A stretch of 23,766 nucleotides of DNA, from the IMG/VR virus record IMGVR_UViG_2585427763_000009. One strand, 5' to 3'. Source of the DNA: a virus (Duplodnaviria > Heunggongvirae > Uroviricota > Caudoviricetes). Of the stretch, positions 2,424-22,327 are shown piece after piece. The notes beneath the pieces were generated by a model. That model saw only the letters and a list, made by a program, of their open reading frames with translations. It ran no database searches and was not told the DNA's origin. Each line of letters starts with the position of its first letter. The first letter of the stretch is position 1. The position numbers and the translations under genes were made by a program.

Positions 2424-2486
2424 ATAATTAACCAGAGTTTTAAACGCACTTAATCGTGCGGGGCTTCTTTTTGCCTGGAGAAAGTC

Positions 2487-3010: not shown

Positions 3011-3012
3011 TA

Positions 3013-5778: not shown

Positions 5779-6107
5779 ACGTCGCCAGTTGCGAAAATTA
5801 TTTACAGGGGGCAGCGTTAAGCATCTAAAGATCTTGTTCTATGATTAGAATGTTTCCTCGTTGCACTCTCGTATAGTTATTTAATGGGAAGATGTACTCT
5901 ATATGTTGTGTTTTGGTGATAAATGAAGCCAAAGGAAGGAGATTTTGCTTGATTGATGGGCGCTCTTTGCTATACACCTTGTATTGAGAAGGAGAAGTAA
6001 TCAAGGATTAAGCTGGCTTTTGTCAAAAATCTGAAAAGCTTTTTTGACTGAATACGATAGCGAGTTGTACTATTTGCGCCCTCAAAAGTAACCGGCGGCT
6101 GGGTAAA

Positions 6108-6482
6108 ATGGGGAAGCAAGGCAAAGGCAAAGGCAACAAAAATCAGGTTAAGGTTACGTGGGCTCAGGCGTGGCGGGATGTAATGATAAGAGCCATGTCT
6201 AATGGTCAGTTGATACCTATTACCATCAGTATTATTTTAATGATTGCTGCATGGAGGTTACCAAAAACAGACTTGTCCAATTTAGCCTTCTCTATTGTTG
6301 ATGGCTTTAAGGAGCATTCCTTGGTTGGTTGGGCTATCTCGGTAATAGTGGGTTTGGCTTGGTCTGCACATGCGCGAATCATGAGGCGCTGTTTTAGTTC
6401 CGAGGCACAGAGAATCGGTAACGAGAAAACAAAGTATCAACAAAGACAGACCACTCAAGCCTTGGGTACAAGTGATAAATAG
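6108..6482 (+). CDS. Small membrane protein, two predicted transmembrane helices (124 aa; true start may be the ATG at 6183)
   Basis: AT-rich ORF; hydrophobic segments LIPITISIILMIAAWRL and LVGWAISVIVGLAWSAHA; first gene after A in the cargo slot; a GGCGGGA Shine-Dalgarno-like run precedes the 6183 ATG. Confidence 0.5.
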   Translation: MGKQGKGKGNKNQVKVTWAQAWRDVMIRAMSNGQLIPITISIILMIAAWRLPKTDLSNLAFSIVDGFKEHSLVGWAISVIVGLAWSAHARIMRRCFSSEAQRIGNEKTKYQQRQTTQALGTSDK

Positions 6483-6502
6483 TTGTTTATTTAGGAGTTA
6501 TT

Positions 6503-7060
6503 ATGCTGACAGTGCTGTTTTATGTGCTGTTGGGTTTAGGCGCAGCACACTTCATTTACGAGCGAATCATTTTGCCGTCCATCCGACTTCATTATAGAAA
6601 CCAATTGTTTGCGCTTCGTGATGTCGCTAGGAGGAAAATCATTGATGGAGGTTCCGATACTTCCATGCAAGCGGCAACACTTGTGCATGACTCATTGAAT
6701 AACGCTATCAATAGATTGCATTTACTCACGTTGCCAAACAAATTTCGTGCTCAAAAGCGTATGGCAGAAAACCATGCAATAAGGCAGAAAATTCGGCGTG
6801 AGATAGATGTTTTCAAACGCTGTGATGATAGAGAAGTTGTTGATGTACTGTTTAAATCCGGTCGGATACTTGAAAATGTACTGTTATTCAATAGCTTAAT
6901 GTTATTGCTTTACATGTTTCCATTTGTCCTTGCTGTATGGTTCTGTGTTAGGGTCATAAAGACAGCAAGTAGTTTAGTACAGTGGGTCAAAGGAAGAGAT
7001 TTAGAGGAAGCTATAATGCTGCTTCCTGATACTCAGGTTGAAAAGGTTGTATACGCATAA
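6503..7060 (+). CDS. Membrane protein with N-terminal and C-terminal hydrophobic helices (185 aa)
   Basis: Starts 20 bp after the previous ORF behind an AGGAG Shine-Dalgarno; hydrophobic N-terminus (LTVLFYVLLGLGAAHFIY) and a C-proximal hydrophobic stretch (LLFNSLMLLLYMFPFVLAVWFCV); followed by a strong terminator. Confidence 0.55.
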   Translation: MLTVLFYVLLGLGAAHFIYERIILPSIRLHYRNQLFALRDVARRKIIDGGSDTSMQAATLVHDSLNNAINRLHLLTLPNKFRAQKRMAENHAIRQKIRREIDVFKRCDDREVVDVLFKSGRILENVLLFNSLMLLLYMFPFVLAVWFCVRVIKTASSLVQWVKGRDLEEAIMLLPDTQVEKVVYA

Positions 7061-7062
7061 AA

Positions 7063-7088
7063 ATCACCCCTTAGGGGGTGATTTTTTT
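7063..7088 (+). terminator. Rho-independent terminator after the two-membrane-protein operon
   Basis: Perfect hairpin ATCACCCC-TTAG-GGGGTGAT followed by TTTTTTT, immediately after the stop at 7060. Confidence 0.65.
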
Positions 7089-7299
7089 ACATGACTTTTG
7101 ATTAGCTGACATTGTAAATCCGCATGTATCAGATGCATTGTTTTGCATGTGGAAATGGGTGTTTTCACTGCCAGCTATCGCTACATGTAGCAAAAACACG
7201 GGCTTAATAAGAAATCATTCTGCCATAAGGCATAACTTCCCCGCGTGCTCAGGTATTGACGTCATAGATATGGATCTTTTTTAATCAAGGTATGGTATT

Positions 7300-8247
7300 A
7301 TGAAGATATTTATTAGTTGGTCAGGTCAGGACAGCCTGGAGATAGCAAAAGTATTACGGGATTGGATACCGAATGTTATTCAAGTAGCTGAGCCGTACGT
7401 ATCAGCGGAAGATATTGATAAAGGCACTCGCTGGGCGACTGATATATCAAAGGAACTTGATGACTCTTCTTATGGGATTATTTGCCTTACAAAAAATAAT
7501 ATTAATGCACCGTGGATAAATTTTGAGGCGGGTGCTTTAGGTAAAAAGGTTGATAAGAGCCGGGTTAGTCCTTTCTTGTTTAAAATTAAACCATCTGAGA
7601 TAACAGGCCCAATATTACAATTCCAGTATACTCGTTCGGATGATAAGAACGATATTTTGAAGTTGATGTTGTCAATAAATAATCAAGCAGGATTTTTGAC
7701 TGAAGAACGCTTAACTAAAGCTTTCGAGCAATGGTGGCCAAGTTTAGAGCGTGAGTTAGATAACATTCAAGATATTAACCCTGTAGATAAAGATTCCACT
7801 AAAAAAACAAAAGGTGATTCGACTTCTGAGATACAAAATCTTTCCAAAATTGTTGAAAGTTTGCTGGATATTAGCCGAACAAATCACCAATTATTGCGTG
7901 ATCCAGCATCATTATTGCCAGAAGAATATGTTAGCAAAATAATAAACAGGGAAGGGCGTAAAGAAACTGTTTTAAAAATTGTAGCTTCTGATTTATTATC
8001 CATGCATCATTCACTAATTCGTGTAAAAAGAAGATTTATTCGTCGTGGTATTGATGAAACATCTAGGAGCGAGTTAATTGAATCATTAAATAAAATGATA
8101 ATGGATTGTTCTAGAGTAATCGCTCACTTAGATAATTATTGTGGGGCTTCATCAAACAATATGTTCAATAGTGCGCTTAGATTGCGGACCAGAAATTTAA
8201 TTGACATGATGGATGAGGAGGATGCAGAACGGGATGAAATGGAATAA
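7300..8247 (+). CDS. TIR-domain protein (N-terminal TIR-like fold ~aa 1-150, C-terminal helical domain of unknown function; 315 aa)
   Basis: N-terminus KIFISWSGQDS (bacterial TIR beta-A strand pattern) and SYGIICLTKNNINAPWINFEAGAL (TIR S-x-W-x-x-x-E pattern, candidate catalytic Glu76 at nt 7525-7527); AT-rich; motif-level recognition only, no search. Confidence 0.6.
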   Translation: MKIFISWSGQDSLEIAKVLRDWIPNVIQVAEPYVSAEDIDKGTRWATDISKELDDSSYGIICLTKNNINAPWINFEAGALGKKVDKSRVSPFLFKIKPSEITGPILQFQYTRSDDKNDILKLMLSINNQAGFLTEERLTKAFEQWWPSLERELDNIQDINPVDKDSTKKTKGDSTSEIQNLSKIVESLLDISRTNHQLLRDPASLLPEEYVSKIINREGRKETVLKIVASDLLSMHHSLIRVKRRFIRRGIDETSRSELIESLNKMIMDCSRVIAHLDNYCGASSNNMFNSALRLRTRNLIDMMDEEDAERDEME

Positions 8248-8791
8248 TCAATTTTGACTAATCATAAATAATTTTGCATATATAAACTTATAATGCCGCA
8301 GCCGCTATTTTTCAGCGGCTGTATATCGCTTATAATGGGTATGTTATTTTTATTTTGATAAAATCATTAAAATTGTCGATGTTATATGAATGCACATGTA
8401 TTATTAATGTTAGAAGATTATGCCTGCTTACGGCTATTGTGCTGAATTCAACTATGAACGCATCAGTATTAAAATCGTTCCATGAAATGTTCTTCGTCTA
8501 CAGCAGATGATGGGCAACGAAAAAATGACGCTGAGTGAGTTGGTCGGGGAGAATTGTTAGAGGTATTTATGGAGTGGTTTAATAATATCGGTCAATCCTG
8601 AGTTGCAGCATCACATAGACGATAGGGAATCTCTCCAGTCGTTCTGGAATGGCAGCGTTGAACAACAAGCACAGCGAGGCGTTAGATGCCCATCAGATTG
8701 ACACAGAGGGTTTATGAATCGCTGGGATTTACTTAGTTTGAAAAATAATATATTTATATGTTTTTGTATTGTGTTTGTTAAGGAGTTTGGA

Positions 8792-8998
8792 TTGAAAAGA
8801 AAACTGATTTGTGTTATGGCTTTTTGGGGGGCGTTGCTGGCTGGTTGTAATGAGAGTAATAAAAAAGAAGTTGAGGGTTGTATTGAAAGAGGTGTCCAAT
8901 ATTTTATAGAGATTGGTTCTTACCCTAAATTAAGTGATGGGCGTGATGCTGTAAAAGTTGCTACTGAACGTTGTAATAGAACAATAACGGCTTTCTGA
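8792..8998 (+). CDS. Small predicted lipoprotein (69 aa from TTG 8792; longer frame opens at ATG 8714)
   Basis: AAGGAG Shine-Dalgarno 6 nt upstream of TTG 8792; N-terminus KRKLICVMAFWGALLAGC is a classic lipoprotein signal with lipobox LAGC; mature part has 3 Cys. The 8714 start would give an atypically long leader. Confidence 0.5.
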   Translation: MKRKLICVMAFWGALLAGCNESNKKEVEGCIERGVQYFIEIGSYPKLSDGRDAVKVATERCNRTITAF

Positions 8999-9000
8999 TA

Positions 9001-9918
9001 ATGGATTATACGAGCTATATAATAGGACAGCTTCAGGTTGAGGATATTATTGATGCAATTAAAGGCGTTAATAATACTAATGTCATAAAAGATTATGTGC
9101 TGCCTGTAGTATTACCAATTATATCTTCTGTGCTGAGTTACTTTATTGCAACTAGGTTGTTTTATCGGCAGGAGGACCTTAAAGCACAAAGAAGAAAGGT
9201 AAGCGTTGTAAATAAATGTATTTATGACTACTTTTCTGCAATGACAACGTTGTTGCAAATTAAAGGGAATTATTATGGTGGGGTAAGTATAAGTGAAAAT
9301 CCTATCGAGAGGGCTTTAGCTTTTCCTGTTGTGGTTTTTTCTGGTGCTCCTCTATCATCAGATTTAAGTGAGTTGGCCTGTATATTGAGTCAAAAGGGAG
9401 TAGGGAATAATAGAGAGCCAGCAAAGACTACTAACTGGGGGGATGCTTTTGCTGTTAGTGATATAGCAAGAAGGTTTAACAGCCTATTGGCTGCATTAAA
9501 TGTTAGGAATGATTTTGATGACACCTATAGAGGAATGATTATTGAATCAACAGGTTCACCTTTGCCTACGATGCGTTTTAAAAATGATGATATTGTTAAT
9601 GCTATAGGTAGTAATAAGGCAGCTTATTACATTGATATTACTGAGCAAATAATGATTATGATAGATGTTTTGTTGCTTGATATTAATCTGTTGCTCAAAG
9701 AGTTGCCATTGTATGCTGAATCGCTGTTTGACAAAAGAGTAATGCAAGAAGATTCAGGGATTCTTAAATTCAATGATTTGCACGAACGTTTTCCTCTACT
9801 TATGAAACCTGTAACGCCACCTTCGATTAAACTCATGTCTGATTATTTGGGGTACAGTGAAGATGAGATCTTACGACGCTATCCATACCCGTTCTTTAAT
9901 ATGCATGATTGTGAATGA
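9001..9918 (+). CDS. Hypothetical membrane-anchored protein (305 aa), translationally coupled to the upstream lipoprotein gene
   Basis: ATG 2 nt after the lipoprotein stop (TGATAATG); one hydrophobic helix (~aa 32-54, VLPVVLPIISSVLSYFIATRLF); AT-rich; no motif I recognise. Confidence 0.55.
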   Translation: MDYTSYIIGQLQVEDIIDAIKGVNNTNVIKDYVLPVVLPIISSVLSYFIATRLFYRQEDLKAQRRKVSVVNKCIYDYFSAMTTLLQIKGNYYGGVSISENPIERALAFPVVVFSGAPLSSDLSELACILSQKGVGNNREPAKTTNWGDAFAVSDIARRFNSLLAALNVRNDFDDTYRGMIIESTGSPLPTMRFKNDDIVNAIGSNKAAYYIDITEQIMIMIDVLLLDINLLLKELPLYAESLFDKRVMQEDSGILKFNDLHERFPLLMKPVTPPSIKLMSDYLGYSEDEILRRYPYPFFNMHDCE

Positions 9919-10022
9919 ATGTGCATATGTCAGAAGCCGTTTTTATTGTCAGTTATCGTCAGTGCTGGCGCGCTCTTGGAGTGTTCATGCAACTGCATTA
10001 AAACCGCCCCACGAAGCGGGCG

Positions 10023-10041
10023 GGCGAGGCGGGGAAAGCAC
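10023..10041. other. Candidate cos cohesive-end site (GGCGAGGCGGGGAAAGCAC)
   Basis: 19-mer matching my memory of the P2 cohesive end, in a GC-rich segment just beyond the 3' end of Q where P2 cos lies; the exact P2 sequence is recalled, not verified. Confidence 0.5.
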
Positions 10042-10171
10042 TGCGCGCTGGCGGTGGTGATGATTGTCTGAGCGCGTCGTGATGGCGTTTAGATTGTGCG
10101 CCGGGGCGTTGGTGTGTCTGCGGGGTGTTTTGTACAGTGGCGAGCGTGTGAGGGCGTGATGACGGGGGTGT

Positions 10172-10193
10172 AAAAAAGCCGCCCGCAGGCGGC
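10172..10193 (-). terminator. Candidate terminator downstream of Q (reverse strand)
   Basis: Hairpin GCCGCC-CGCA-GGCGGC preceded on the + strand by AAAAAA (a T-run on the reverse strand), 6 nt past the Q stop. Confidence 0.4.
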
Positions 10194-10198
10194 GATGT

Positions 10199-11233
10199 TC
10201 AGCCGTTGTCAGTGTCCAGTGAGTAGTTTTTAAAGCGGATGACCTCCTGACCGAGCCAGCCGTTTATTTCCCGAATCCTGTCCTGTAACGGGATAAGTTC
10301 ATTGCGGACAAAGACCTTTGCCACTTTCTCAATATCGCCCAGCGACCCGACGTTTTCCGGCTTGCCACCCATCAACTGAAAGGGGATGCGGTGCGCGTCC
10401 AGCAGGTCAGCGGCGCTGGCTTTTTTGATATTAAAAAAATCGTCCTTCGTGGCCACTTCACTGAGCGGGATAATTTTAATGCCGTCGGCTTTTCCCTGTG
10501 GGGCATAGAGAAACAGGTTTTTAAAGTTATTGCGGCCTTTCGACTTCACCATGTTTTCGCGGAGCATTTCGATATCGTTGCGATCCTGCACGGCATCAGT
10601 GACGTACATGATGTATCCGGCATGTGCGCCGTTTTCGTAATACTTGCGGCGGAACAGCGTGGCCGACTCATTCAGCCAGGCAGAGTTAAGGGCGCTGAGA
10701 TATTCCGGCAGACCGTACAGCTCCTGATTAATATCCGGCTCCAGCAGGTGAAACACGGAGCCGGGCGCGAAAGGTGTCGGCTCGTTGAAGGACGGCACCC
10801 ACCAGTAAACATCCTCCTCCACGCCACGGCGGGTATATTTTGCCGGTGAGGTTTCCAGTCTGATGACCTTACCGGTGGTGCTGTAACGCTTTTCCAGAAA
10901 CGCATTACCGAATACCAGAAAATCCAGCACAAAGCGGCTGAAATCCTGCTGAGAAAGCCACGGGTGTGGGATAAACGTTGAGGCCAGAATGTTACGTTTG
11001 ACGTAAATCGGTGAGCTGTGATGCACGGCAGCACGCAGGCTTTTTGCCAGACCGGTAAAGCTGACTGGTGGCTCATACCATCTGCCGTTACTGATGCACT
11101 CGACGTAATCCAGAATGTCACGGCGGTCGAGTACCGGCACCGGCTCACCAAAGGTGAATGCCTCCATTTTCGGGGCGCTGGCGGTCATTTTTTTTGCCGC
11201 AGGTTGCGGTGTTTTCCCTTTTTTCTTGCTCAT
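10199..11233 (-). CDS. Q: Capsid portal protein gpQ (344 aa)
   Basis: 344-aa reverse-strand ORF; N-terminus MSKKKGKTPQPAAKKMTASAPKMEAFTFGEP matches remembered P2 gpQ; correct size and position next to cos. Confidence 0.88.
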   Translation of the reverse strand: MSKKKGKTPQPAAKKMTASAPKMEAFTFGEPVPVLDRRDILDYVECISNGRWYEPPVSFTGLAKSLRAAVHHSSPIYVKRNILASTFIPHPWLSQQDFSRFVLDFLVFGNAFLEKRYSTTGKVIRLETSPAKYTRRGVEEDVYWWVPSFNEPTPFAPGSVFHLLEPDINQELYGLPEYLSALNSAWLNESATLFRRKYYENGAHAGYIMYVTDAVQDRNDIEMLRENMVKSKGRNNFKNLFLYAPQGKADGIKIIPLSEVATKDDFFNIKKASAADLLDAHRIPFQLMGGKPENVGSLGDIEKVAKVFVRNELIPLQDRIREINGWLGQEVIRFKNYSLDTDNG

Positions 11234-12042
11234 CAGTAAAACTCCAGAATGGTGGATGTCAGCGGGGTGCTGATACCGGCGGTGAGTGGCTCATTTAACA
11301 GGGCGTGCATGGTCGCCCAGGCGAGGTCGGCGTGGCTGGCTTCCTCGCTACGGCTGGCCTCATAGGTGGCGCTGCGTCCGCTGCTGGTCATGGTCTTGCG
11401 GATAGCCATGAACGAGCTGGTGATGTCGGTGGCGCTGCGTCCGCTGCTGGTCATGGTCTTGCGGATAGCCATGAACGAGCTGGTGATGTCGGTGGCGCTG
11501 CGTCCGCTGCTGGTCATGGTCTTGCGGATAGCCATGAACGAGCTGGTGATGTCGGTGGCGCTGCGTCCGCTGCTGGTCATGGTCTTGCGGATAGCCATGA
11601 ACGAGCTGGTGATGTCGGTGGCGCTGCGTCCGCTGCTGGTCATGGTCTTGCGGATAGCCATGAACGAGCTGGTGATGTCGGTGGCGCTGCGTCCGCTGCT
11701 GGTCATGGTCTTGCGGATAGCCATGAACGAGCTGGTGATGTCGGTGGCGCTGACGTCATATTCCAGACAGCCACGGCGGATGACGTCTTTTGCCTTGAGC
11801 ACCATTGCGGTTTTCATTTCCGGCGTGTAGCGGATATCGCGTGCGGCGGGATAGAACGAGCGCACGAGCTGGAACACGCCGACACCGAGGCCGGTGGCAT
11901 CAATTCCGATGTATTCGACGTTGTATTTTTCGGTGAGTTTGCGGATGGATTCCGCCTGAGTGGCAAAGTCCATGCCTTTCCACTGGTGACGCTCAAGTAT
12001 TCTGAATTTACCTCCGGCCACCACCGGCGGTGCCAGCACCAC
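11233..12042 (-). pseudogene. P: 3' remnant of terminase ATPase/nuclease subunit gene P: 5'-truncated, carrying an expanded in-frame tandem repeat
   Basis: Reverse-strand frame ends 1 nt into the Q start (P2 P-Q arrangement) and contains a terminase nuclease-like motif (YIGIDATGLGVGV), but only ~270 codons remain versus ~590 in P2 gpP; the upstream partner on the + strand is lysozyme K, not O/N/M. Confidence 0.7.
11371..11748. repeat. Perfect tandem repeat, 6 copies of a 63-bp unit (in frame; encodes SATDITSSFMAIRKTMTSSGR x6 on the reverse strand)
   Basis: Unit GCTGCGTCCGCTGCTGGTCATGGTCTTGCGGATAGCCATGAACGAGCTGGTGATGTCGGTGGC starts at 11371, 11434, 11497, 11560, 11623 and 11686 with no mismatches; phase is ambiguous by about 6 nt because the flanks share GGTGGC / GCTG. 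Confidence 0.9.
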
Positions 12043-12058
12043 GCATCCGGCGCTGGCC

Positions 12059-12502
12059 GTGTCCGAAGGGACGGCGAATCATCCGCTGACGAAAAACCGG
12101 GGCTATGACGTGATAGTCACCGGACTGGACGGAAAGCCGGAAATTTTCACCGACTACAGTGACCACCCGTTCGCACATGGTCGACCGGCGAAGGTGTTTA
12201 ACCGTCGCGGTGAAAAATCCACGGCCTCCGGTCGCTATCAGCAGCTTTACCTGTTCTGGCCGCATTACCGCAAACAGCTTGCCCTGCCGGATTTCAGTCC
12301 GTTGTCACAGGACAGGCTCGCCATTCAGTTGATCCGCGAACGCGGTGCACTGGATGACATCCGGGCGGGACGCATTGAGCGCGCCATTTCACGCTGTCGC
12401 AATATCTGGGCGTCCCTGCCGGGTGCCGGTTACGGTCAGCGTGAGCATCCACTGGAAAAACTGGTCACCGTCTGGCGTACCGCCGGCGGCGTACCGGCTT
12501 AA
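12059..12502 (+). pseudogene. K: Endolysin (lysozyme) gpK lacking its first ~18 codons; a GTG at 12059 could still start a 147-aa product
   Basis: Translation SEGTANHPLTKNRGYDVIVTGLDGKPEIFTDYSDHPFAHGRPAKVFNRRGEKSTASGRYQQLYLFWPHYRK matches remembered P2 gpK from about residue 19 to the end; no in-frame ATG upstream; holin gene Y is absent. Confidence 0.7.
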
Positions 12503-12516
12503 ACGGAGTAAACACC

Positions 12517-12942
12517 ATGAAGAAATTATCCCTTTCACTGATGCTGAATGTGCCGCTGGCGCTGATGCTGGCACTGTCCCTGATTTACCCGCAGAGCGTG
12601 GCCGTCAGTTTTGTCGCCGCCTGGGCGATTCTGGCGACGGTTATCTGTGTGGTTGCCGGTGGTGTCGGCGTGTATGCCACTGAGTATGTGCTGGAACGCT
12701 ACGGGCGGGAGCTGCCGCCGGAATCGCTGGCCGTGAAGATTGTCACGTCGCTGTTTTTGCAGCCGGTGCCGTGGCGCAGACGGGCAGTAGCTCTGGTGGT
12801 GATGGTGGCGACGTTTATCTCGCTGGTCGCTGCCGGGTGGATTTTTACCGCGCTGATTTATCTTGTGGCGTCGCTGTTTTTCCGGCTGATACGTAAAGCC
12901 TGCCGTCAGCGTTTTGAGGGGCGGGAACCATGTCAAAGCTGA
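12517..12942 (+). CDS. lysA: Lysis regulatory membrane protein LysA (141 aa)
   Basis: 141-aa multi-pass hydrophobic protein directly after K, GGAG Shine-Dalgarno; same size and position as P2 lysA. Confidence 0.78.
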   Translation: MKKLSLSLMLNVPLALMLALSLIYPQSVAVSFVAAWAILATVICVVAGGVGVYATEYVLERYGRELPPESLAVKIVTSLFLQPVPWRRRAVALVVMVATFISLVAAGWIFTALIYLVASLFFRLIRKACRQRFEGREPCQS

Positions 12943-13355
12943 TGATTGTGCTGGTTGTGCTGTTATCGCTGGCGGTGGCGGGGCTGTTTCTGGTGAAGCA
13001 TGAAAACGCCAGCCTGCGCGCCTCGCTGGACAGGGCGAACAACGTCGCCAGTGAACAGCAGACGACCATCACCATGCTGCAAAATCAGCTTCATGTTGCC
13101 ATCACCAGGGCAGACAAAAACGAGCTGGCGCAGGTGGCACTGCGTCAGGAACTGGAGAACGCCGCGAAGCGTGAAGCACAGCGCGAGAAAACCATCACGA
13201 GGTTACTTAATGAAAACGAAGATTTTCGCCGCTGGTATGGCGCTGACCTGCCTGATGCTGTGCGCCGGTTGCACCAGCGCCCCGCCTGCACCGACGCCAG
13301 TGATTGTCGCCAACGCCTGCCCGAAAGTGAGCCTTTGCCCGATGCCGGGCAGTGA
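12930..13355 (+). CDS. lysB: Inner-membrane spanin LysB (Rz-like, 141 aa)
   Basis: N-terminal membrane anchor then coiled-coil-like sequence; same size and position as P2 lysB; the lysC frame is embedded in it. Confidence 0.78.
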   Translation: MSKLMIVLVVLLSLAVAGLFLVKHENASLRASLDRANNVASEQQTTITMLQNQLHVAITRADKNELAQVALRQELENAAKREAQREKTITRLLNENEDFRRWYGADLPDAVRRLHQRPACTDASDCRQRLPESEPLPDAGQ

Positions 13356-13500
13356 CCCGGAGACGAACGGCGATTTAAGTGCCGATATCCGGCAGCTTGA
13401 GAACGCGCTGGCACGTTGTGCCAGCCAGGTAAAAATGATTAAACACTGTCAGGACGAAAACGATGCTCAAACCCGACAGCCTGCGCAGGGCGCTGACTGA
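13210..13500 (+). CDS. lysC: Outer-membrane lipoprotein spanin LysC (Rz1-like, 96 aa), embedded in the +1 frame of lysB
   Basis: ATG at 13210; lipoprotein signal MKTKIFAAGMALTCLMLCAGC (lipobox LCAGC); proline-rich mature region; embedded spanin arrangement as in P2. Confidence 0.7.
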   Translation: MKTKIFAAGMALTCLMLCAGCTSAPPAPTPVIVANACPKVSLCPMPGSDPETNGDLSADIRQLENALARCASQVKMIKHCQDENDAQTRQPAQGAD

Positions 13501-13930
13501 TGCCGTCACGGTGCTGAAAACTAACCCCGATATGCTGCGGATATTCGTGGATAACGGGAGTATTGCCTCCACACTGGCGGCGTCGTTGTCATTCGAAAAG
13601 CGTTACACGCTCAATGTCATTGTGACCGACTTTACCGGTGATTTTGACCTGCTCATCGTGCCGGTGCTGGCGTGGCTGCGGGAAAATCAGCCCGACATCA
13701 TGACCACCGACGAAGGCCAGAAAAAGGGCTTCACGTTTTATGCAGACATCAACAATGACAGCAGCTTTGATATCAGTATCAGCCTGATGCTGACCGAGCG
13801 CACGCTGGTCAGTGAGGTTGACGGTGCGCTGCATGTGAAGAATATCCCGGAACCTCCGCCGCCGGAGCCAGTCAATCGCCCGATGGAGCTTTATATCAAT
13901 GGTGAACTGGTGAGCAAGTGGGATGAATGA
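13463..13930 (+). CDS. R: Tail completion protein gpR (155 aa)
   Basis: 155 aa, same size and order as P2 gpR. Confidence 0.82.
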   Translation: MLKPDSLRRALTDAVTVLKTNPDMLRIFVDNGSIASTLAASLSFEKRYTLNVIVTDFTGDFDLLIVPVLAWLRENQPDIMTTDEGQKKGFTFYADINNDSSFDISISLMLTERTLVSEVDGALHVKNIPEPPPPEPVNRPMELYINGELVSKWDE

Positions 13931-14375
13931 GTTTAAGCGTTTTGAAGACCGACTGACCGGACTGATTGAATCGCTGTCACCGTCTGGGCGTCGGCGACTG
14001 AGTGCAGAACTGGCGAAACGTCTGCGGCAGAGTCAGCAGCGTCGGGTGATGGCACAGAAAGCTCCGGACGGCACACCCTACGCACCACGCCAGCAGCAGA
14101 GCGCCAGAAAAAAGACCGGTCGCGTTAAGCGAAAAATGTTTGCGAAACTTATCACCAGTCGTTTTTTGCATATCCGCGCCAGCCCTGAACAGGCATCAAT
14201 GGAGTTTTACGGCGGGAAGGCACCGAAAATCGCCAGTGTGCATCAGTTCGGTCTGTCGGAAGAAACCCGGAAAGACGGTAAGAAAATTGATTATCCGGCG
14301 CGTCCTCTGCTCGGCTTTACCGGTGAGGATGTGCAGATGATTGAAGAGATTATCCTGGCTCACCTTGAGCGTTAG
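13923..14375 (+). CDS. S: Tail completion protein gpS (150 aa)
   Basis: 150 aa, same size and order as P2 gpS; start overlaps the R stop. Confidence 0.82.
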   Translation: MNEFKRFEDRLTGLIESLSPSGRRRLSAELAKRLRQSQQRRVMAQKAPDGTPYAPRQQQSARKKTGRVKRKMFAKLITSRFLHIRASPEQASMEFYGGKAPKIASVHQFGLSEETRKDGKKIDYPARPLLGFTGEDVQMIEEIILAHLER

Positions 14376-14406
14376 TTTTATCCAGACAGAGGCTGATGCG
14401 CAATTA

Positions 14407-14439
14407 AACATTGAGCGGCCATGCTGGTCGCTCAATGTT
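14407..14439. terminator. Hairpin between convergent genes (S on +, cargo gene on -); candidate bidirectional terminator
   Basis: Perfect 11-bp inverted repeat AACATTGAGCG / CGCTCAATGTT around an 11-nt loop, in the 71-bp gap between two convergent stop codons; flanking T/A runs are weak. Confidence 0.4.
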
Positions 14440-14446
14440 TAGAGGT

Positions 14447-15232
14447 TTATGAGTGATTTTTATTTGATGCTTTGTATTCTAAAACCTTCTTATTGGCGTA
14501 AAAGAATTTTGTATATGACAGGAATATAACCAGACCTGAAGTGAAATAGACGAGGGATAGTATTAATAATGCTTTTTTGCGACTGTTATTATCTTTAATC
14601 TCCAGGCTTAACCATTCGGAGTCCTCCTCGTTTAGCTGTAAGAGCTTATTGCAGGCGATTTCAGGAAGTGTGTCTTTTATAAATACGTTTTGCAGTCTCT
14701 TGCAATCGGCAAGGCTATAAGTTTTATTAAATTCAACTGCTTTATTTTTGAAGGATAAAAGAACTTTGTCACTATAAACATAGTACATCATGTTTTTATA
14801 TGGTATGCCTATGGCATCCCTTACTATAACGGATTGTTCGTTGTGTATGTAACATGCGAGGAGAATGTAAAAAATACTGGCCAGAATTACAATTATTGTT
14901 TTAATTATGTGTGGTGGTTTTGTTATGTCACCCCAGATGCGAGTAAGGAAAAAATACGATGTTTTTAGTTTTCCATCAATCAGTCCCTGCTGTATCATTC
15001 TCACATTTTCAATGCCTGATACATTGATTCCGTTAATTATTTTAAATAGTTGAATGTCGCGCCACTCGCGGTCAAGTCTTTTTAATTTTTTGTCTGAATA
15101 TCCAAAATTGAAATAATGTGCAATAAGCCTCATAAGGTTACTTTTACCAAAGCTAAAAAATGCTAATACTGCAAAGCTACAAAGGAAAAAAACGATTAGC
15201 CCCCACACATTAGTCACATTATAGCTGACCAT
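14447..15232 (-). CDS. Hypothetical membrane protein (261 aa, about 3 transmembrane helices), moron in the S/V slot
   Basis: Strongly AT-rich reverse-strand ORF between S and V where P2 carries the non-essential orf30; hydrophobic helices at the N-terminus, middle (IIKTIIVILASIFYILLACYI) and C-terminus (ALLILSLVYFTSGLVIFL). Confidence 0.6.
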   Translation of the reverse strand: MVSYNVTNVWGLIVFFLCSFAVLAFFSFGKSNLMRLIAHYFNFGYSDKKLKRLDREWRDIQLFKIINGINVSGIENVRMIQQGLIDGKLKTSYFFLTRIWGDITKPPHIIKTIIVILASIFYILLACYIHNEQSVIVRDAIGIPYKNMMYYVYSDKVLLSFKNKAVEFNKTYSLADCKRLQNVFIKDTLPEIACNKLLQLNEEDSEWLSLEIKDNNSRKKALLILSLVYFTSGLVIFLSYTKFFYANKKVLEYKASNKNHS

Positions 15233-15315
15233 TACGCTCTCCTTGAATGTTGTCTGGTAGTTCTACAAATGAATCCAGATAGCATAACTTTTATATATTG
15301 TGCAATCTCACATGC

Positions 15316-15951
15316 ATGAACACTCTCGCAAATATTCAGGAACTCGCGCGCGCACTGCGCAACATGATTCGCACCGGCATTATCGTCGAAACCGACCTTA
15401 ACGCCGGTCGCTGCCGCGTGCAGACCGGCGGCATGTGCACCGACTGGCTTCAGTGGCTGACCCATCGCGCCGGTCGTTCGCGCACATGGTGGGCACCTTC
15501 CGTGGGGGAACAGGTGCTGATTCTGTCCGTGGGCGGTGAACTCGACACGGCGTTTGTTCTGCCGGGGATTTATTCCGGCGATAATCCCGCGCCGTCTGCG
15601 TCGGCGGATGCCCTGCATATCCGTTTCCCTGACGGGGCGGTGATTGAGTATGAACCCGAAACCAGTGCGCTCACGGTAAGCGGAATTAAAACGGCCAGCG
15701 TGACGGCTTCCGGTTCTGTTACTGCCACTGTGCCGGTGGTCATGGTGAAAGCGTCAACCCGCATCACCCTGGACACACCGGAGGTGGTCTGCACCAACAG
15801 GCTGATTACCGGCACGCTGGAAGTGCAGAAGGGCGGGACGATGCGCGGCAACATTGAACACACCGGCGGTGAACTCTCATCAAACGGTAAGGTACTGCAT
15901 ACCCATAAACACCCCGGCGACAGCGGCGGCACAACCGGGAGTCCTCTATGA
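15316..15951 (+). CDS. V: Baseplate spike/assembly protein gpV (211 aa from ATG 15316)
   Basis: Matches P2 gpV size and order; start set at MNTLANIQ; stop overlaps the W start. Confidence 0.85.
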   Translation: MNTLANIQELARALRNMIRTGIIVETDLNAGRCRVQTGGMCTDWLQWLTHRAGRSRTWWAPSVGEQVLILSVGGELDTAFVLPGIYSGDNPAPSASADALHIRFPDGAVIEYEPETSALTVSGIKTASVTASGSVTATVPVVMVKASTRITLDTPEVVCTNRLITGTLEVQKGGTMRGNIEHTGGELSSNGKVLHTHKHPGDSGGTTGSPL

Positions 15952-16295
15952 CAGCGCGTTATCTCGGAATGAATCGCAGTGATGGCCTGACGGTCACTGA
16001 CCTTGAGCATATCAGCCAGAGTATCGGCGATATCCTGCGCACACCGGTCGGCTCACGGGTGATGCGCCGTGATTACGGCTCGTTGCTGGCGTCAATGATT
16101 GACCAGCCGCAGACCCCGGCGCTTGAGTTGCAGATTAAGGTCGCCTGTTACATGGCGGTGCTGAAATGGGAACCCCGCGTCACCCTGTCATCCGTCACCA
16201 CGGCGCGCAGTTTTGACGGGCGAATGACGGTCACGTTAACCGGTCAGCACAACGACACCGGTCAGCCACTTTCGTTAACCATCCCTGTGAGTTGA
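15948..16295 (+). CDS. W: Baseplate wedge protein gpW (115 aa)
   Basis: 115 aa, same size and order as P2 gpW. Confidence 0.85.
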   Translation: MTARYLGMNRSDGLTVTDLEHISQSIGDILRTPVGSRVMRRDYGSLLASMIDQPQTPALELQIKVACYMAVLKWEPRVTLSSVTTARSFDGRMTVTLTGQHNDTGQPLSLTIPVS

Positions 16296-16299
16296 AACC

Positions 16300-17208
16300 A
16301 TGCCGATTATCGACCTGAACCAGCTACCCGCACCGGATGTGGTCGAGGAGCTGGACTTTGAAACCATTCTTGCCGAACGCAAGGCGACACTGATTTCCCT
16401 TTACCCGGAAGACCAGCAGGAGGTGGTCGCCCGTACCCTGACGCTGGAATCGGAGCCTCTCGTCAAACTGCTGGAAGAAAATGCTTATCGTGAGCTTATC
16501 TGGCGTCAGCGTGTGAATGAGGCCGCACGGGCGGTGATGCTGGCCTGTGCCGCCGGTAATGACCTTGATGTGATTGGTGCCAATTACAACACCACACGCC
16601 TGATTATCATCCCGGCAGATGATTCGACCATCCCGCCGACACCGGCAGTGATGGAATCTGACACCGATTATCGTCTGCGTATTCAGCAGGCGTTTGAAGG
16701 TTTAAGCGTTGCCGGGTCGGTGGGAGCCTATCAGTATCATGGTCGCAGTGCCGACGGGCGTGTCGCGGATATCTCTGTCACCAGTCCGTCTCCGGCCTGT
16801 GTCACTATCTCCGTGCTGTCCCGAGAAAATAACGGTGTCGCATCCGAAGACCTGCTGGCTGTGGTGCGTAACGCTCTTAATGGCGAGGACGTCAGGCCGG
16901 TGGCTGACCGTGTGACCGTGCAGTCTGCCGCCATTGTTGAATACCAGATAAACGCCACGCTGTATCTTTACCCTGGTCCAGAAAGCGAACCCATCCGCGC
17001 CGCCGCCGTGAAAAAACTGGAAGCGTACATCACGGCACAGCACCGGCTGGGGCGCGACATCCGTCTGTCTGCCATTTATGCCGCTTTGCATGTGGAAGGC
17101 GTGCAGCGTGTCGAACTGACTGCACCGCTGGCTGACATCGTGCTCAACAGTACGCAGGCGTCTTTCTGCACCGAATACAGCGTCGTGACCGGAGGCTCGG
17201 ATGAGTGA
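16300..17208 (+). CDS. J: Baseplate assembly protein gpJ (302 aa)
   Basis: 302 aa, same size and order as P2 gpJ. Confidence 0.85.
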   Translation: MPIIDLNQLPAPDVVEELDFETILAERKATLISLYPEDQQEVVARTLTLESEPLVKLLEENAYRELIWRQRVNEAARAVMLACAAGNDLDVIGANYNTTRLIIIPADDSTIPPTPAVMESDTDYRLRIQQAFEGLSVAGSVGAYQYHGRSADGRVADISVTSPSPACVTISVLSRENNGVASEDLLAVVRNALNGEDVRPVADRVTVQSAAIVEYQINATLYLYPGPESEPIRAAAVKKLEAYITAQHRLGRDIRLSAIYAALHVEGVQRVELTAPLADIVLNSTQASFCTEYSVVTGGSDE

Positions 17209-17731
17209 TTCGCGACTGCTGCCGACCGGCTCATCACCGCTTGAGGTCGCCGCCGCAAAAGCCTGTGCGGAAATTGAAAAAACACCGGTCAGTATTCGTG
17301 AGCTGTGGAACCCGGACTCCTGTCCGGCAAATCTGCTGCCGTGGCTGGCGTGGGCGTTTTCGGTCGACAGGTGGGATGAAAAGTGGCCGGAAGCGACAAA
17401 ACGCGCCGTTATCCGCGATGCCTATTTCATCCACTGTCATAAAGGCACTATCGGCGCAATCCGACGCGTGGTGGAGCCGCTCGGCTATCTCATCAACGTG
17501 ACGGAGTGGTGGGAAAACAGTGACCCGCCCGGCACCTTCCGGCTTGATATTGGTGTACTGGAAAGCGGTATCACAGAGGCAATGTATCAGGAAATGGAAC
17601 GGCTGATTGCCGATGCCAAACCTGCAAGCCGCCACCTTATTGGCCTGAACATTACCCGGGACATTCCCGGCTATCTGTTCGCCGGTGGTGTGGCTTACGA
17701 CGGCGATGTAATTACGGTTTACCCCGGATAA
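17201..17731 (+). CDS. I: Baseplate/tail protein gpI (176 aa)
   Basis: 176 aa, same size and order as P2 gpI; start overlaps the J stop. Confidence 0.85.
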   Translation: MSDSRLLPTGSSPLEVAAAKACAEIEKTPVSIRELWNPDSCPANLLPWLAWAFSVDRWDEKWPEATKRAVIRDAYFIHCHKGTIGAIRRVVEPLGYLINVTEWWENSDPPGTFRLDIGVLESGITEAMYQEMERLIADAKPASRHLIGLNITRDIPGYLFAGGVAYDGDVITVYPG

Positions 17732-17741
17732 GTGAGGAATA

Positions 17742-19787
17742 ATGAGCATAAAATTCAGAACCGTTATCACCACTGCCGGTGCAGCAAAGCTGGCAGCGGC
17801 AACCGCGCCGGGAGGGCGGAAGGTCAACATTACCACGATGGCCGTCGGGGATGGCGGTGGTAAATTGCCTGTCCCGGATGCCGGACAGACCGGGCTTATC
17901 CATGAAGTCTGGCGACATGCGCTGAACAAAATCAGCCAGGACAAACGAAACAGTAATTATATTATCGCCGAGCTGGTTATTCCGCCGGAGGTGGGCGGTT
18001 TCTGGATGCGTGAGCTTGGCCTGTACGATGATGCGGGAACATTAATTGCCGTGGCGAACATGGCCGAAAGTTATAAGCCAGCTCTTGCCGAAGGCTCAGG
18101 GCGTTCGCAGACCTGTCGCATGGTCATCATCGTCAGCAGTGTGGCCTCAGTGGAGCTGACCATTGACACCACAACGGTGATGGCGACTCAGGATTACGTT
18201 GATGACAAAATTGCAGAGCATGAACAGTCACGACGTCACCAGGACGCCTCGCTGACCGCAAAAGGTTTTACTCAGTTAAGCAATGCGACCAACAGCACGT
18301 CTGAAACACTGGCCGCAACGCCGAAAGCGGTTAAGGCCGCATATGACCTTGCTAACGGGAAATATACCGCACAGGACGCTACCACAGCGCGAAAAGGTCT
18401 TGTCCAGCTAAGTAGTGCGACCAACAGCATATCTGAAACGCTCGCCGCAACACCAAAAGCCGTTAAGACGGTAATGGATGAAACGAACAAGAAAGCGCCA
18501 TTAAACAGCCCTGCACTGACCGGAACGCCAACGACGCCAACTGCGCGACAGGGAACGAATAATACTCAGATCGCAAACACGGCTTTCGTTATGGCCGCGA
18601 TTGCCGCCCTTGTAGACTCGTCGCCTGACGCACTGAATACGCTGAACGAGCTGGCGGCGGCGCTGGGCAATGACCCGAATTTTGCTACCACCATGACTAA
18701 TGCGCTTGCGGGTAAGCAACCGAAAGATGCCACTTTGACGGCGCTGGCGGGGCTTGCTACTGCGGCAGACAGGTTTCCGTATTTTACGGGGAATGATGTT
18801 GCCAGCCTGGCGACCCTGACAAAAGTCGGGCGGGATATTCTGGCTAAATCGACCGTTGCCGCTGTTATCGAATATCTCGGTTTACAGGAAACGGTAAACC
18901 GAGCCGGGAACGCCGTGCAAAAAAATGGCGATACTTTGTCCGGCGGGCTTACTTTTGAAAACGACTCAATCCTTGCCTGGATTCGAAATACTGACTGGGC
19001 GAAGATTGGATTTAAAAATGATGCCGATGGTGACACTGATTCATATATGTGGTTTGAAACAGGTGACAACGGCAATGAATATTTCAAATGGAGAAGTCGC
19101 CAGAGCACCACAACAAAAGACCTGATGAATCTTAAATGGGATGCTCTGTATGTTCTTGTTAAAGCCCTTTTCAGCAGTGAAGTAAAAATATCTACAGTCA
19201 ATGCACTGAGGATATTTAATTCATCTTTTGGGGCTATTTTTCGCCGTTCTGAAGAAAACCTGTATATCATTCCTACACGAGAAAATGAGGGTGAAAATGG
19301 AGATATTGGGCCATTAAGGCCATTCGGCATCAACTTAAGAACAGGAGTTGTGTCTGTTGGTAATGGTGCCAGGATTGATGGCGGGCTGGCACTTGGCACG
19401 AATAACGCGTTGGGTGGGAACTCTATTGTTCTTGGTGATAACGACACCGGATTTAAACAAAATGGCGATGGTAATCTGGATGTTTATGCTAATAACGTCC
19501 ATGTTATGCGCTTTGTTTCCGGAAGCATTCAAAGTAATAAGACCATAAATATTACGGGGCGTGTTAATCCCTCGGATTACGGTAACTTTGATTCCCGCTA
19601 TGTGAGAGATATCAGACTTGGCACACGTGTTGTCCAGACCATGCAGAAAGGGGTGATGTATGAGAAAGCAGGGCACGTAATTACCGGGCTTGGTATTGTC
19701 GGTGAAGTCGATGGTGATGACCCCGCAGTATTCAGGCCAATACAAAAATACATCAATGGCACATGGTATAACGTCGCACAGGTGTAA
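17742..19787 (+). CDS. H: Tail fiber protein gpH (681 aa) with an internal ~25-aa repeat and a lower-GC C-terminal receptor-binding region
   Basis: N-terminus MSIKFRTVITTAGAAKLAAATAPGG matches remembered P2 gpH; tail-fiber repeat copies ...QLSNATNSTSETLAATPKAVKAAYD... and ...QLSSATNSISETLAATPKAVKTVMD... Confidence 0.85.
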   Translation: MSIKFRTVITTAGAAKLAAATAPGGRKVNITTMAVGDGGGKLPVPDAGQTGLIHEVWRHALNKISQDKRNSNYIIAELVIPPEVGGFWMRELGLYDDAGTLIAVANMAESYKPALAEGSGRSQTCRMVIIVSSVASVELTIDTTTVMATQDYVDDKIAEHEQSRRHQDASLTAKGFTQLSNATNSTSETLAATPKAVKAAYDLANGKYTAQDATTARKGLVQLSSATNSISETLAATPKAVKTVMDETNKKAPLNSPALTGTPTTPTARQGTNNTQIANTAFVMAAIAALVDSSPDALNTLNELAAALGNDPNFATTMTNALAGKQPKDATLTALAGLATAADRFPYFTGNDVASLATLTKVGRDILAKSTVAAVIEYLGLQETVNRAGNAVQKNGDTLSGGLTFENDSILAWIRNTDWAKIGFKNDADGDTDSYMWFETGDNGNEYFKWRSRQSTTTKDLMNLKWDALYVLVKALFSSEVKISTVNALRIFNSSFGAIFRRSEENLYIIPTRENEGENGDIGPLRPFGINLRTGVVSVGNGARIDGGLALGTNNALGGNSIVLGDNDTGFKQNGDGNLDVYANNVHVMRFVSGSIQSNKTINITGRVNPSDYGNFDSRYVRDIRLGTRVVQTMQKGVMYEKAGHVITGLGIVGEVDGDDPAVFRPIQKYINGTWYNVAQV

Positions 19788-19790
19788 TTT

Positions 19791-20318
19791 ATGCAGCATT
19801 TAAAAAATATTACTGCGGGTAATCCAAAAACTGTTGCCCAATATCAACTGACAAAAAATTTTGATGTTATCTGGTTATGGTCCGAAGAGGGAAAAAACTG
19901 GTATGAGGAAGTAAGTAATTTTCAGGAAGACACGATAAAGATTGTTTACGACGAGAATAATATAATTGTCGGCATCACCAGAGATGCTTCAACGCTTAAC
20001 CCTGAAGGTTTCAGCGTTGTCGAGGTTCCTGATATTACCTCCAACCGACGTGCTGATGACTCAGGTAAATGGATGTTTAAGGATGGTGCCGTGATTAAGC
20101 GGATTTATACGGCAGATGAACAGGAGCAACAGGCAGAATCACAAAAAGCAGCTTTACTTTCCGAAGCGGAAAGCGTTATTCAGCCACTGGAACGCGCTGT
20201 CAGGCTGAATATGGCGACGGATGAGGAATGCGCACGACTGGAGTCATGGGAACGCTACAGCGTTCTGATCAGCCGTGTGGATCCTGCAAATCCTGAATGG
20301 CCGGAAATGCCGCAATAA
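19791..20318 (+). CDS. G: Tail fiber assembly chaperone gpG (175 aa)
   Basis: 175 aa directly after H; same size and order as P2 gpG. Confidence 0.82.
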
Positions 20319-20539
20319 GTTGTATAAGCTCTGGTGTGAGATTACATATCTATGGCACAGAGTAAAGCCTAATCTGACAGGCCGCTCTGTGTCTGGAGTA
20401 GATTTTAGTAAAGCATTATTTTATTAGTGCAAATTCTAATCAATACATTTTATGTATATGATATCCTACGGACTTTAATGACTTGGTTTAGGCTAACCAG
20501 ATAACACTGAAGGAATATTTTTGATAATTAAGGTGCGGT

Positions 20540-21133
20540 ATGTTTACTAAGCGACGATTAAAAAATATTAACTGGGAGGCAAGTTCAGTGATTCTTGCTA
20601 TGGTTCTCTTTGTTGGAAATATATTTTATACAAATCATCGTGATGATATAAGCATGGAGGCTGAGAGGGACAGTATCAGAACAATGTTTGCATATGAAAT
20701 CGCTAATAACCATCGCGCTCTCACTTTTCTTGATAAAACGAGACATATTGGCTTTGACGAAAATTCGGAGCATTTTGTTGGCGAGCCTTTTGCCATTAAT
20801 GTCAAATCATTAGGGGGACCTCGCTTACAGATTGCATTAAACCAGACTGATAAAGTGTTTAAATCCTACTTCGGCGAATTAAGTAAGCTTGATAAAGAGG
20901 ATGTTACTCTTCTTATGGACTATTACCATGAGCAAAGCATCCTGCTGGAGCGTGTAAAATCTACGTTACAGAAGATGAAAAGTGGTAATGATATTAAAGT
21001 TGATATTGATGGTTGCTTATTAGAAGAACACTTCATGAATGAGCTTAATCTTTCTAATATTTTGCTTAAACGCTATAGCTATTTATTATCACAACACGCT
21101 AAGGAACATAAAACAAAAGATTTACATAATTGA
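20540..21133 (+). CDS. Hypothetical membrane-anchored protein (197 aa) in the Z/fun slot between G and FI
   Basis: AT-rich ORF after a 220-bp AT-rich spacer; single N-terminal hydrophobic helix (SSVILAMVLFVGNIFY) then a soluble domain; no motif I recognise. Confidence 0.55.
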   Translation: MFTKRRLKNINWEASSVILAMVLFVGNIFYTNHRDDISMEAERDSIRTMFAYEIANNHRALTFLDKTRHIGFDENSEHFVGEPFAINVKSLGGPRLQIALNQTDKVFKSYFGELSKLDKEDVTLLMDYYHEQSILLERVKSTLQKMKSGNDIKVDIDGCLLEEHFMNELNLSNILLKRYSYLLSQHAKEHKTKDLHN

Positions 21134-21462: not shown

Positions 21463-21576
21463 ATGAGTGACTATCATCACGGCGTGCAGGTGCTGGAGAT
21501 TAACGACGGCACCCGCGTCATTTCCACCGTATCCACAGCCATTGTCGGCATGGTCTGCACGGCTAGCCTCCCGTAA
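21463..21576 (+). pseudogene. FI: Tail sheath gene FI remnant: first ~35 codons only, then a premature stop at the deletion junction
   Basis: Translation [35 protein letters not shown] matches the remembered P2 gpFI N-terminus, then LP-stop. Confidence 0.7.
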
Positions 21577-22327
21577 CAGGCTGGAAGCCAGTGTCGCTCC
21601 GTCACTGGCCGGAATTAAAATCCCGCACATCGACCAGTCGCAGGAGTCCGATGCGAAATTCCTGACCCGTCTTGCTGAACGCAACGGCGGTGAGGTGTCG
21701 GTAAAAATGGGAAAACTGCTGTTTCTCAAAGCGGGGCAGGGGGGGACGGGCAGCGGGAAAAAAATCCCGCAGATTACCATCACCCGCAGCGACGGCGACC
21801 GTCATCATTTTGCGATTGCTGACCGTGGAGCCTACACAGGCGTAACGGCAAAGTGGTTACACACCAAAGACCCGAAGCCGCAAAAGCAGAAGGTAAAACT
21901 GAAACGCAAAAAGAAAGAGAAACACCTGCGCGCACTGGAGCACCCGAAAGCGAAACCGGTCACGCAGAAGAAAGAGCCAAAAGTACCGGAAGCGCGCGAA
22001 GGTGAATACATGGCCGGTGAGGCTGACAACGTTTTTGCCCTGACCACGGTATATGCCACGAAAGCACAGGCCATGCGCGCCGCTCAGGCGAAGTGGGATA
22101 AACTGCAACGGGGTGTTGCGGAGTTCTCCATCAGCCTGGCTACTGGTCGGGCAGATATTTACACGGAAACGCCGGTCAGAGTGTCAGGCTTTAAGCGCGT
22201 CATAGACGAGCAGGACTGGACAATCACTAAGGTGACACATTTTCTGAATAATAGCGGCTTCACGACGTCCCTGGAGCTTGAGGTCAGGCTTTCTGATGTG
22301 GAGTACGAAACAGAAGATGATGAGTGA
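21569..22327 (+). pseudogene. D: 3' portion of tail/late gene D, lacking its 5' region and native start
   Basis: Reading frame out of phase with the FI remnant; translation ...KFLTRLAERNGGEVSVKMGKLLFLKAG...VRLSDVEYETEDDE resembles the C-terminal part of P2 gpD (~387 aa); FII, E, T and U are missing between FI and D. Confidence 0.65.

Follow-up and report, generated by a model that had tools for sequence, protein, structure and literature searches.

The lysis module of phage P2, Y-K-lysA-lysB-lysC (AF063097), encodes a holin, an endolysin, an antiholin, an Rz-like and an Rz1-like protein, with LysA described as the antiholin (PMC3091744), and is embedded in a late operon, O-N-M-L-X-Y-K-lysA-lysB-R-S, that is transcribed from the pO promoter (AF063097 annotation). 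In the defective prophage DLP12 of E. coli K-12, a lysis cassette (essD-ybcS-rzpD/rzoD) with a two-component spanin has survived, and this holin-endolysin-spanin operon has been reported to be domesticated for the control of vesiculation (PMC7918800). The window, by which we mean the whole stretch of 23,766 nucleotides that we analysed, is a defective P2-like prophage lying between cpxP and fieF in an E. coli lineage, as seen by blastn comparison with phage P2 (AF063097); an intact relative occupies the same site in E. coli D7. It carries the same lysA, lysB and lysC genes as P2, in the same order and with the same overlaps and lengths, and is colinear with P2 without gaps and at 97% nucleotide identity from codon 17 of K through H (Table 1). 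Unlike P2, it lacks Y, K codons 1-16 and pO, the promoter that depends on Ogr, and its module would be predicted neither to be expressed nor to work as a lysis system. It resembles DLP12 in that a lysis cassette with a two-component spanin has persisted in a defective prophage, but DLP12 keeps its holin, a full endolysin, a regulated promoter and experimentally documented phenotypes (PMC7918800), none of which the window has.

Table 1. Features of the defective P2-like prophage (positions are those of the window).
Feature	Position	Strand	Remarks
int	left edge of window		
Replication genes B to A	1755-5780		
Cargo region	6108-9918	+	
cos	near 10023-10041		
Portal gene Q	10199-11233	-	
P'	11233-12042	-	C-terminal remnant of terminase large subunit gpP; blastn to P2 1221-1728; Pfam Terminase_6C, E 3e-51
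Deletion junction P-K	12052-12055		4-bp microhomology GCTG; joins terminase gene P (P2 nt 1728) to K (P2 nt 7044 onwards)
K' to H block	12052-19166		P2 7044-14158; no gaps, 97.2% identity (blastn)
K'	12056-12502	+	5'-truncated lambda-R-type endolysin, gpK residues 17-165 (translation compared with P2 gpK)
lysA	12517-12942	+	141 aa; multi-pass membrane protein; antiholin in P2
lysB	12930-13355	+	141 aa; Rz-like inner-membrane spanin with N-terminal transmembrane segment
lysC	13210-13500	+	96 aa; Rz1-like outer-membrane lipoprotein spanin
R	13463-13930	+	tail completion; R/S match PF06891 (E 1e-45) and PF05069 (E 6e-44)
S	13923-14375	+	tail completion; colinear with P2
G, then further cargo	downstream of H		
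Second deletion junction	21564-21567		joins FI (P2 17756) to D (P2 23191)
ogr	22409-22627		protein identical to P2 Ogr
fieF	beyond ogr		chromosomal gene

The three genes that follow K' are complete, as the preliminary description had stated: lysA, lysB and lysC have no internal stops, stand in P2 order at full length, and each is preceded by a Shine-Dalgarno sequence (GGAG or GAGG), which makes their starts good ones. LysA is a multi-pass protein judging by its hydrophobic segments; it has no match in the copy of Pfam that was searched, and NCBIfam was used instead (NF038378, E 2.6e-35), with PF28015 (LysA) among the precomputed hits. LysB matches the TIGR03495 equivalog (E 1.8e-51) and is hydrophobic over residues 1-26, and LysC matches the NF038368 equivalog (E 2.9e-38) and PF23793 (E 3.6e-17). 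The hits to NF038378, TIGR03495, NF038368 and PF23793 all exceed the curated thresholds of these families. In translation, LysC opens with MKTKIFAAGMALTCLMLCAGC, a signal-like segment ending in LMLCAGC, and continues into a proline-rich stretch, and lipoprotein processing is predicted. The lysC frame was originally thought to be embedded within lysB, but although it begins inside lysB in a different frame, its last 145 nt lie past the lysB stop, and it shares 38 nt with the start of R, which is an 'overlapped' spanin arrangement; by their Rz/Rz1-like features and this architecture, LysB and LysC thus classify as a predicted two-component spanin. The exact window proteins recur on public contigs (50 for LysA, 41 for K' and 46 for LysB). 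Immediately downstream, R and S, both intact, close the orphaned pO operon to which the lysis genes belong.

Further along the prophage, the second deletion left little of the sheath gene, eliminated the tube gene, E/E', T and U, and truncated D at its 5' end. A P2-derived tailocin (R-type bacteriocin) equipped with a lysis cassette was considered and ruled out, the sheath, tube and tape-measure genes being deleted and the holin missing too. At the P2 old/tin hotspot, the prophage also keeps a 2TM-1TM-TIR defence system of three genes (PADLOC E-values from 1e-58 to 1e-118), and a system of this type on the P2-like phage AC1 has been shown to protect against lambda and LF82_P8 (PMC9122126).

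The deletion between P and K and the loss of the late promoter

The loss of the holin, already noted from the window itself, is confirmed by the comparison with P2. Position 12055 of the window corresponds to P2 1728 and position 12056 to P2 7048, so that the P2 interval 1729-7047 is missing, and with it Y (P2 6716-6997); the stretch from P' to K', upstream of the K remnant, contains no Y homologue. The same event was far larger than the loss of a holin. It took the 5' 1,265 nt of P (the N-terminal 421 codons), pP, pO and the Ogr site that they share, as well as O, N, M, L, X and codons 1-16 of K, a lesion of about 5.3 kb that measures 5,321 bp in an intact sibling prophage (L087, positions 2219-7539). 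The parental sequence reads ...CATCCGGCGCTG/TCGCC on the P side and ...GACATGCTG/GCCGTG on the K side (slashes mark the breakpoints), and the window reads CATCCGGCGCTGGCCGTG across the junction. By a single illegitimate recombination at the 4-bp microhomology, the prophage lost everything from inside P to codon 16 of K, including the divergent pP/pO late promoters with their Ogr-binding site, all the head genes, the tail gene X and the holin gene.

Two features of the window could raise the suspicion that this junction is an assembly or scaffolding artefact of one genome and that the real prophage is complete: five private T-to-G changes follow runs of G, and a private, perfect repeat array adjoins the junction. 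The latter, detected by Tandem Repeats Finder at 11365-11757, consists of 6.2 copies of a 63-bp unit and enlarges P', which lacks its promoter as well as its N-terminus; the unit is single-copy in sibling loci, and only the window has it as a perfectly repeated array. Nevertheless, the junction has a clean 4-bp microhomology, and the same junction recurs, with an identical K' product, in no fewer than 24 public contigs of independent assembly (draft or Logan assemblies from NCBI, ENA and Logan), lying at the same position in contigs of about 153 kb. The junction is therefore real, and an artefact is vanishingly unlikely. It occurs in 0 of 5,426 complete E. coli genomes, and an exact scan found none in the GTDB species-representative genomes. 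That it might be a unique event, as the first of these counts suggested, was ruled out when look-ups with exact proteins recovered the clone in draft and Logan assemblies.

The pO and pP transcription starts and their activator site (P2 3016-3127) all lie within the deleted interval, and the Ogr-dependent pO with its activator site (P2 3057-3127), which stands upstream of a functional P2-type cassette, is absent here. P' and K' now point apart with no promoter between them. No TGT-N12-ACA site of the Ogr type occurs upstream of the block (the window has just three, at 17870, 20953 and 21322), and a simple consensus scan of the plus strand from 9900 to 14541 yielded no sigma-70-like site. The possibility raised earlier that a late promoter still drives these genes thus finds no support in the sequence scan. 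On the other hand, ogr is intact and pV has an activator site (15247-15274) that matches the P2 site exactly; the promoter loss is therefore specific to the K'-lysABC-R-S operon. The late regulatory circuit thus survives, but the K'-lysABC-R-S fragment is cut off from it. The block is presumably untranscribed; weak read-through from the upstream plus-strand cargo (6108-9918), across 2 kb of antisense Q and P', is possible.

Age of the lesion and variation within the clone

The key to interpreting the intact frames is the sibling L087 (GCA_024706755.1), an intact E. coli prophage that, unlike the window, still has P (590 aa), O, N, M, L, X, Y and a full K (165 aa), and that encodes identical LysA and LysB proteins. 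It provides a picture of the prophage of the window just before the deletion. The two are identical over 12052-13500 (0 differences, 100% nucleotide identity) and differ at only 2 of 8,891 nt over 12052-20942 (99.98% identity), which places the deletion, by sequence divergence, as evolutionarily very recent. With so little divergence, 0.012 substitutions that destroy a frame would be expected in lysA-lysC, and the probability of finding the frames intact under neutrality is about 0.99; because divergence is near zero, intact frames are uninformative on selection. A check for frameshifts and premature stops had been proposed as a way to refute the integrity of the genes. None is present in lysA, lysB or lysC of the window, and the integrity of the frames thus stands, but the test cannot discriminate between drift and retention when so little time has elapsed. 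The tail genes provide a useful control in this respect: R, S, V, W, J, I, H and G are as intact as the lysis genes, and R and S can serve as an internal control since they are useless without the sheath and tube genes.

Before the sibling is taken into account, the cassette looks more isolated than it is. Its best match among the 5,426 complete E. coli genomes and 80 IMG/VR loci reaches only 97.6% identity, but nearest-neighbour distances within the panel range from 0 to 64 differences, and the 56 of the window are ordinary for mosaic P2-like phages. When private substitutions were sought by setting the window against 79 IMG/VR and reference loci, 7 of 2,324 positions were private to it. Relative to the 80-locus IMG/VR panel these include two Ser-to-Pro changes, K S131P and LysA S13P, which could have been signs of decay. 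This was ruled out, as both alleles are present in the intact L087 and therefore predate the deletion.

Variation among descendants of the deletion was also compared, as the preliminary description had proposed for related defective prophages. The clone, as we define it, comprises the window together with L086, L088-L094 and L105-L107, which have the same junction, and it was sampled by look-up with the tail-fibre H allele; the deletion was found in 24 of 24 contigs read with the clone-specific allele H Q167. (The portal protein is too widespread for clone sampling, with 7,759 blocks; the FI'-D' fusion carries three changes private to the window, and no record of that exact product exists.) The late genes of the clone show five nonsynonymous changes (lysB C120F, which is also lysC A27S, J Q130L, V A52V, S S100A and H P167Q) against one synonymous change (S D49), although S S100A is probably a sequencing error. 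This differs significantly from the 44 nonsynonymous and 146 synonymous differences between the window and P2 (Fisher p = 0.004). The lysB C120F/lysC A27S variant, carried by L089 and L091, is nonsynonymous in both genes. The pattern fits relaxed constraint, with the reservation that a count of 5:1 is small. Very young bacterial polymorphism is also generally rich in nonsynonymous changes, functional genes included. One further member, L093, has the same junction together with a 123-bp deletion in lysA and a stop at codon 76 of lysB (E76*); it is a metagenome scaffold containing Ns and may be chimeric.

Holin-less lysis genes elsewhere in E. coli

A second remnant that keeps lysA, lysB and lysC but no holin is known from the same chromosomal site. 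This type (L002, e.g. in E. coli BA22372) is present between cpxP and fieF in 70 of the 5,426 complete E. coli genomes, and like the window it retains intact lysA-lysB-lysC-R-S-orf30 and has a deletion starting in the sheath gene FI. Unlike the window, it is of independent origin, has a portal'-lysA junction and has lost K entirely; it is also more eroded, with A', V' and FI' as pseudogenes, and older. Its private changes number 7 in 1.86 kb (4 nonsynonymous and 3 synonymous), and two of them, LysA W108G and R130C, affect positions that are invariant in 83 relatives. That two independent remnants at one site both keep lysA-lysB-lysC-R-S-orf30 may point to retention, albeit on a basis of two events only. 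Across the complete genomes as a whole, Y and the 5' end of K were found in 1,484 and lysABC in 1,555 (each at a coverage of at least 80%), and the excess of about 71 is essentially the L002-type clone (70 genomes). There is thus no general enrichment of holin-less lysABC among the 5,426 complete E. coli genomes.

Neutral remnant or retained function

The anatomy of the block, its junction, the loss of its promoter, its identity to an intact sibling and its pattern of polymorphism all point to a young, silent and neutrally drifting passenger remnant of a known kind, probably lacking both transcription and function, and we consider this reading highly likely. The region is the distal half, now without a promoter, of the P2 late 'O operon' (K'-lysA-lysB-lysC-R-S), in which LysA would be an antiholin with no holin to regulate and LysB/LysC a spanin pair whose turn comes only once holin and endolysin have acted. 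With no Y, no functional K and no promoter, the three surviving proteins would be left without substrate or partner, and their frames would still be intact because the deletion is too recent for mutations to have landed. Of the two explanations first put forward for the cassette, neutral decay in progress and a host-beneficial role, the former is thus favoured, with the qualification that decay has hardly started: the cassette does not differ from that of L087, the changes within the clone are mostly nonsynonymous, and lysA and lysB are broken in L093. The latter receives no support, as intactness is uninformative, pO has been deleted without a detectable replacement, the holin partner is gone and lysABC is not enriched.

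Older gene callers label K' 'lysozyme'. From its GTG at 12059 an open frame of 147 codons extends to 12502 without an internal stop, it is nucleotide-identical to the matching part of the full-length K of L087, and it differs from P2 gpK by a single residue, the S131P shared with that sibling. K' has no match in the copy of Pfam that was searched; in a PDB sequence search used instead, P2 gpK aligns to lambda lysozyme (1am7/3d3d, E 4e-44), with 'avsegt' opposite 'awsegt', and the SEGT motif falls in the region of the lambda active site. Glu21 of gpK is retained as residue 3 of K', which keeps the (A/W)SEGT active-site motif of lambda-R-type lytic transglycosylases (GH104); we take the glutamate of this motif to be catalytic, as in lambda lysozyme. 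K' could accordingly be imagined as a working endolysin, translated from the GTG and freed by a holin that another phage, resident or incoming, supplies. We find this extremely improbable. The GTG codes for Val19, inside gpK, and is preceded by ccggcgctggccGTG with no Shine-Dalgarno sequence and no promoter, in place of the 165-aa K with its own ATG and ribosome-binding site that belongs to a functional P2-type cassette. The 16 missing codons (MPVINTHQNIAAFLDM, residues 1-16) align to lambda R 1-14, and the GH104 fold is incomplete without this segment ahead of the catalytic Glu, which in lambda lysozyme presumably forms the helix leading into it. The conservation of the sequence is explained by zero elapsed time. 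The 147-aa frame noted initially is thus present, but its GTG is not a credible gene start, and K' is a pseudogene that is unlikely to fold or act. The accompanying argument, that an endolysin without a holin cannot reach the periplasm unaided, is reasonable, since the N-terminus of gpK is not hydrophobic, but it becomes moot for a truncated K' without start signals.

Selective retention of the other genes would require that LysA and/or LysB-LysC benefit the host, either through modulation of the envelope or of vesicles or through an antiholin that disturbs the lysis timing of superinfecting P2-like phages. The three intact frames with their Shine-Dalgarno sequences, the maintenance of the same genes in the second, independently deleted cpxP-fieF remnant and the precedent of DLP12 domestication (PMC7918800) can be cited in its favour. 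However, with zero substitutions relative to the intact sibling the first of these carries no information, and the useless tail genes are equally intact. The native promoter has been deleted with no detectable replacement; one variant of the clone changes both LysB and LysC, lysA and lysB are disrupted in L093, and the LysA of the older remnant has itself changed at W108 and R130, which are otherwise invariant. The DLP12 precedent comes with a holin, with an endolysin and with a regulated promoter of its own, none of which is present here; the absence of a promoter, the 5:1 pattern, the disrupted alleles of L093 and the lack of holin-less enrichment likewise set the locus apart from a DLP12-like domestication. 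We think selective retention very unlikely. Two independent cpxP-fieF remnants lost Y and K yet kept lysA-lysB-lysC, and one can also conceive of the orphan antiholin and/or spanin being expressed at a low level by read-through, with the host gaining from a mistimed or blocked holin of superinfecting P2-like phages or from envelope modulation, a scenario that we regard as highly improbable.

Favouring the reading of a drifting remnant, we propose a pseudogene label for K', and for lysA, lysB, lysC, R and S an annotation as orphaned pO-operon remnants that lack a promoter. The object is already known in kind and matters little beyond its correct annotation. If anything favours the retention of the element, it may be the 2TM-1TM-TIR anti-phage cargo rather than the lysis leftovers, and selection may have favoured the two deletions for doing away with virion production and the lethal holin-endolysin pair. 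The case illustrates how prophages decay by large deletions. It also illustrates that no conclusion on selection can be drawn from intact ORFs in a prophage remnant as long as its lesion is undated, and here the lesion can be dated as very recent because a near-identical intact sibling exists.

Other remnants carrying the lysis genes

A second defective P2-like remnant, in E. coli BA22372 (L002), whose junction was found in 70 complete E. coli genomes, is independent of that in the window and more eroded. Here lysA adjoins a truncated portal gene at the fusion point, and K and the holin gene Y are wholly lost, while lysA-lysB-lysC-R-S-orf30 are still intact. In both remnants the head-side deletion stops at K or shortly behind it, the two endpoints being no more than ~460 bp apart. 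Among loci sharing the junction between the terminase remnant P' and the truncated endolysin gene, the metagenome scaffold L093 has lost 123 bp of lysA, the deletion lying between short direct repeats, and carries a nonsense codon (E76*) in lysB. Additional substitutions are clustered near these lesions and the scaffold contains Ns; it may be chimeric.

Coordinates of features in the window and in two related loci
Sequence	Feature	Position	Remarks
Window	Three cargo genes	6108-8247	P2 old/tin hotspot; PADLOC model matches
Window	Cargo ORF, 305 aa	9001-9918	
Window	Perfect tandem array, 63 bp x 6.2	11365-11757	inside P' (minus-strand gene)
Window	orf30 homologue	14447-15232	minus strand
Window	Cargo ORF, 197 aa	20540-21133	
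Window	FI'-D' frame	21467-22327	286 codons
Window	Second large deletion junction	21564-21567	sheath gene FI (P2 17756) joined to D (P2 23191)
Window	Private substitutions	9175, 14220, 21744, 21750, 21757; also 8043	
L002 (E. coli BA22372)	P2 remnant	6224-10259	same cpxP-fieF site as window
L093 (ENA metagenome scaffold)	P-K junction, lysA deletion and lysB E76*	8569-9429	junction identical to window's

Shared and private changes in the window

The second deletion, which removed the tube gene, E/E', the tape measure gene T and U and created the FI'-D' frame, is common to clone members L090 and L105-L107. The multi-copy array in P', on the other hand, is private to the window, its unit being single-copy in P2 and in every sibling locus (L086-L094), with a 10-nt direct repeat (GGTGGCGCTG) on either side. 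The array keeps the P' reading frame, adding 105 aa as ATDITSSFMAIRKTMTSSGRS repeats, and arose either by slipped-strand amplification within a defunct gene or as an artefact of assembly. Six substitutions are also private to the window relative to its clone; five replace T with G immediately behind a G or GG, three of them within 14 bp of a G-rich run. These T-to-G changes resemble systematic sequencing error more than genuine mutation.

Accessory genes and anti-phage cargo

Only 5 of the 786 nt of the orf30 homologue (0.6%) differ from P2, versus ~3% for the flanking genes, and the gene is missing from the otherwise colinear D7 prophage, an intact relative at the same site, suggesting that orf30 is an accessory gene that has recently spread. 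Neither it nor the two single cargo ORFs, which lie at variable sites of P2 (adjacent to cos and at the fun(Z) position, respectively), had a match in Pfam or PADLOC. The three cargo genes of the old/tin hotspot matched the PADLOC models 2TM-TIR (E 2e-58), 1TM-TIR (E 3e-75) and TIR-TM (E 2e-118), and together form the 2TM-1TM-TIR anti-phage system, a kind validated in the P2-like phage AC1 (PMC9122126). The host could plausibly retain the remnant for the sake of this cargo.
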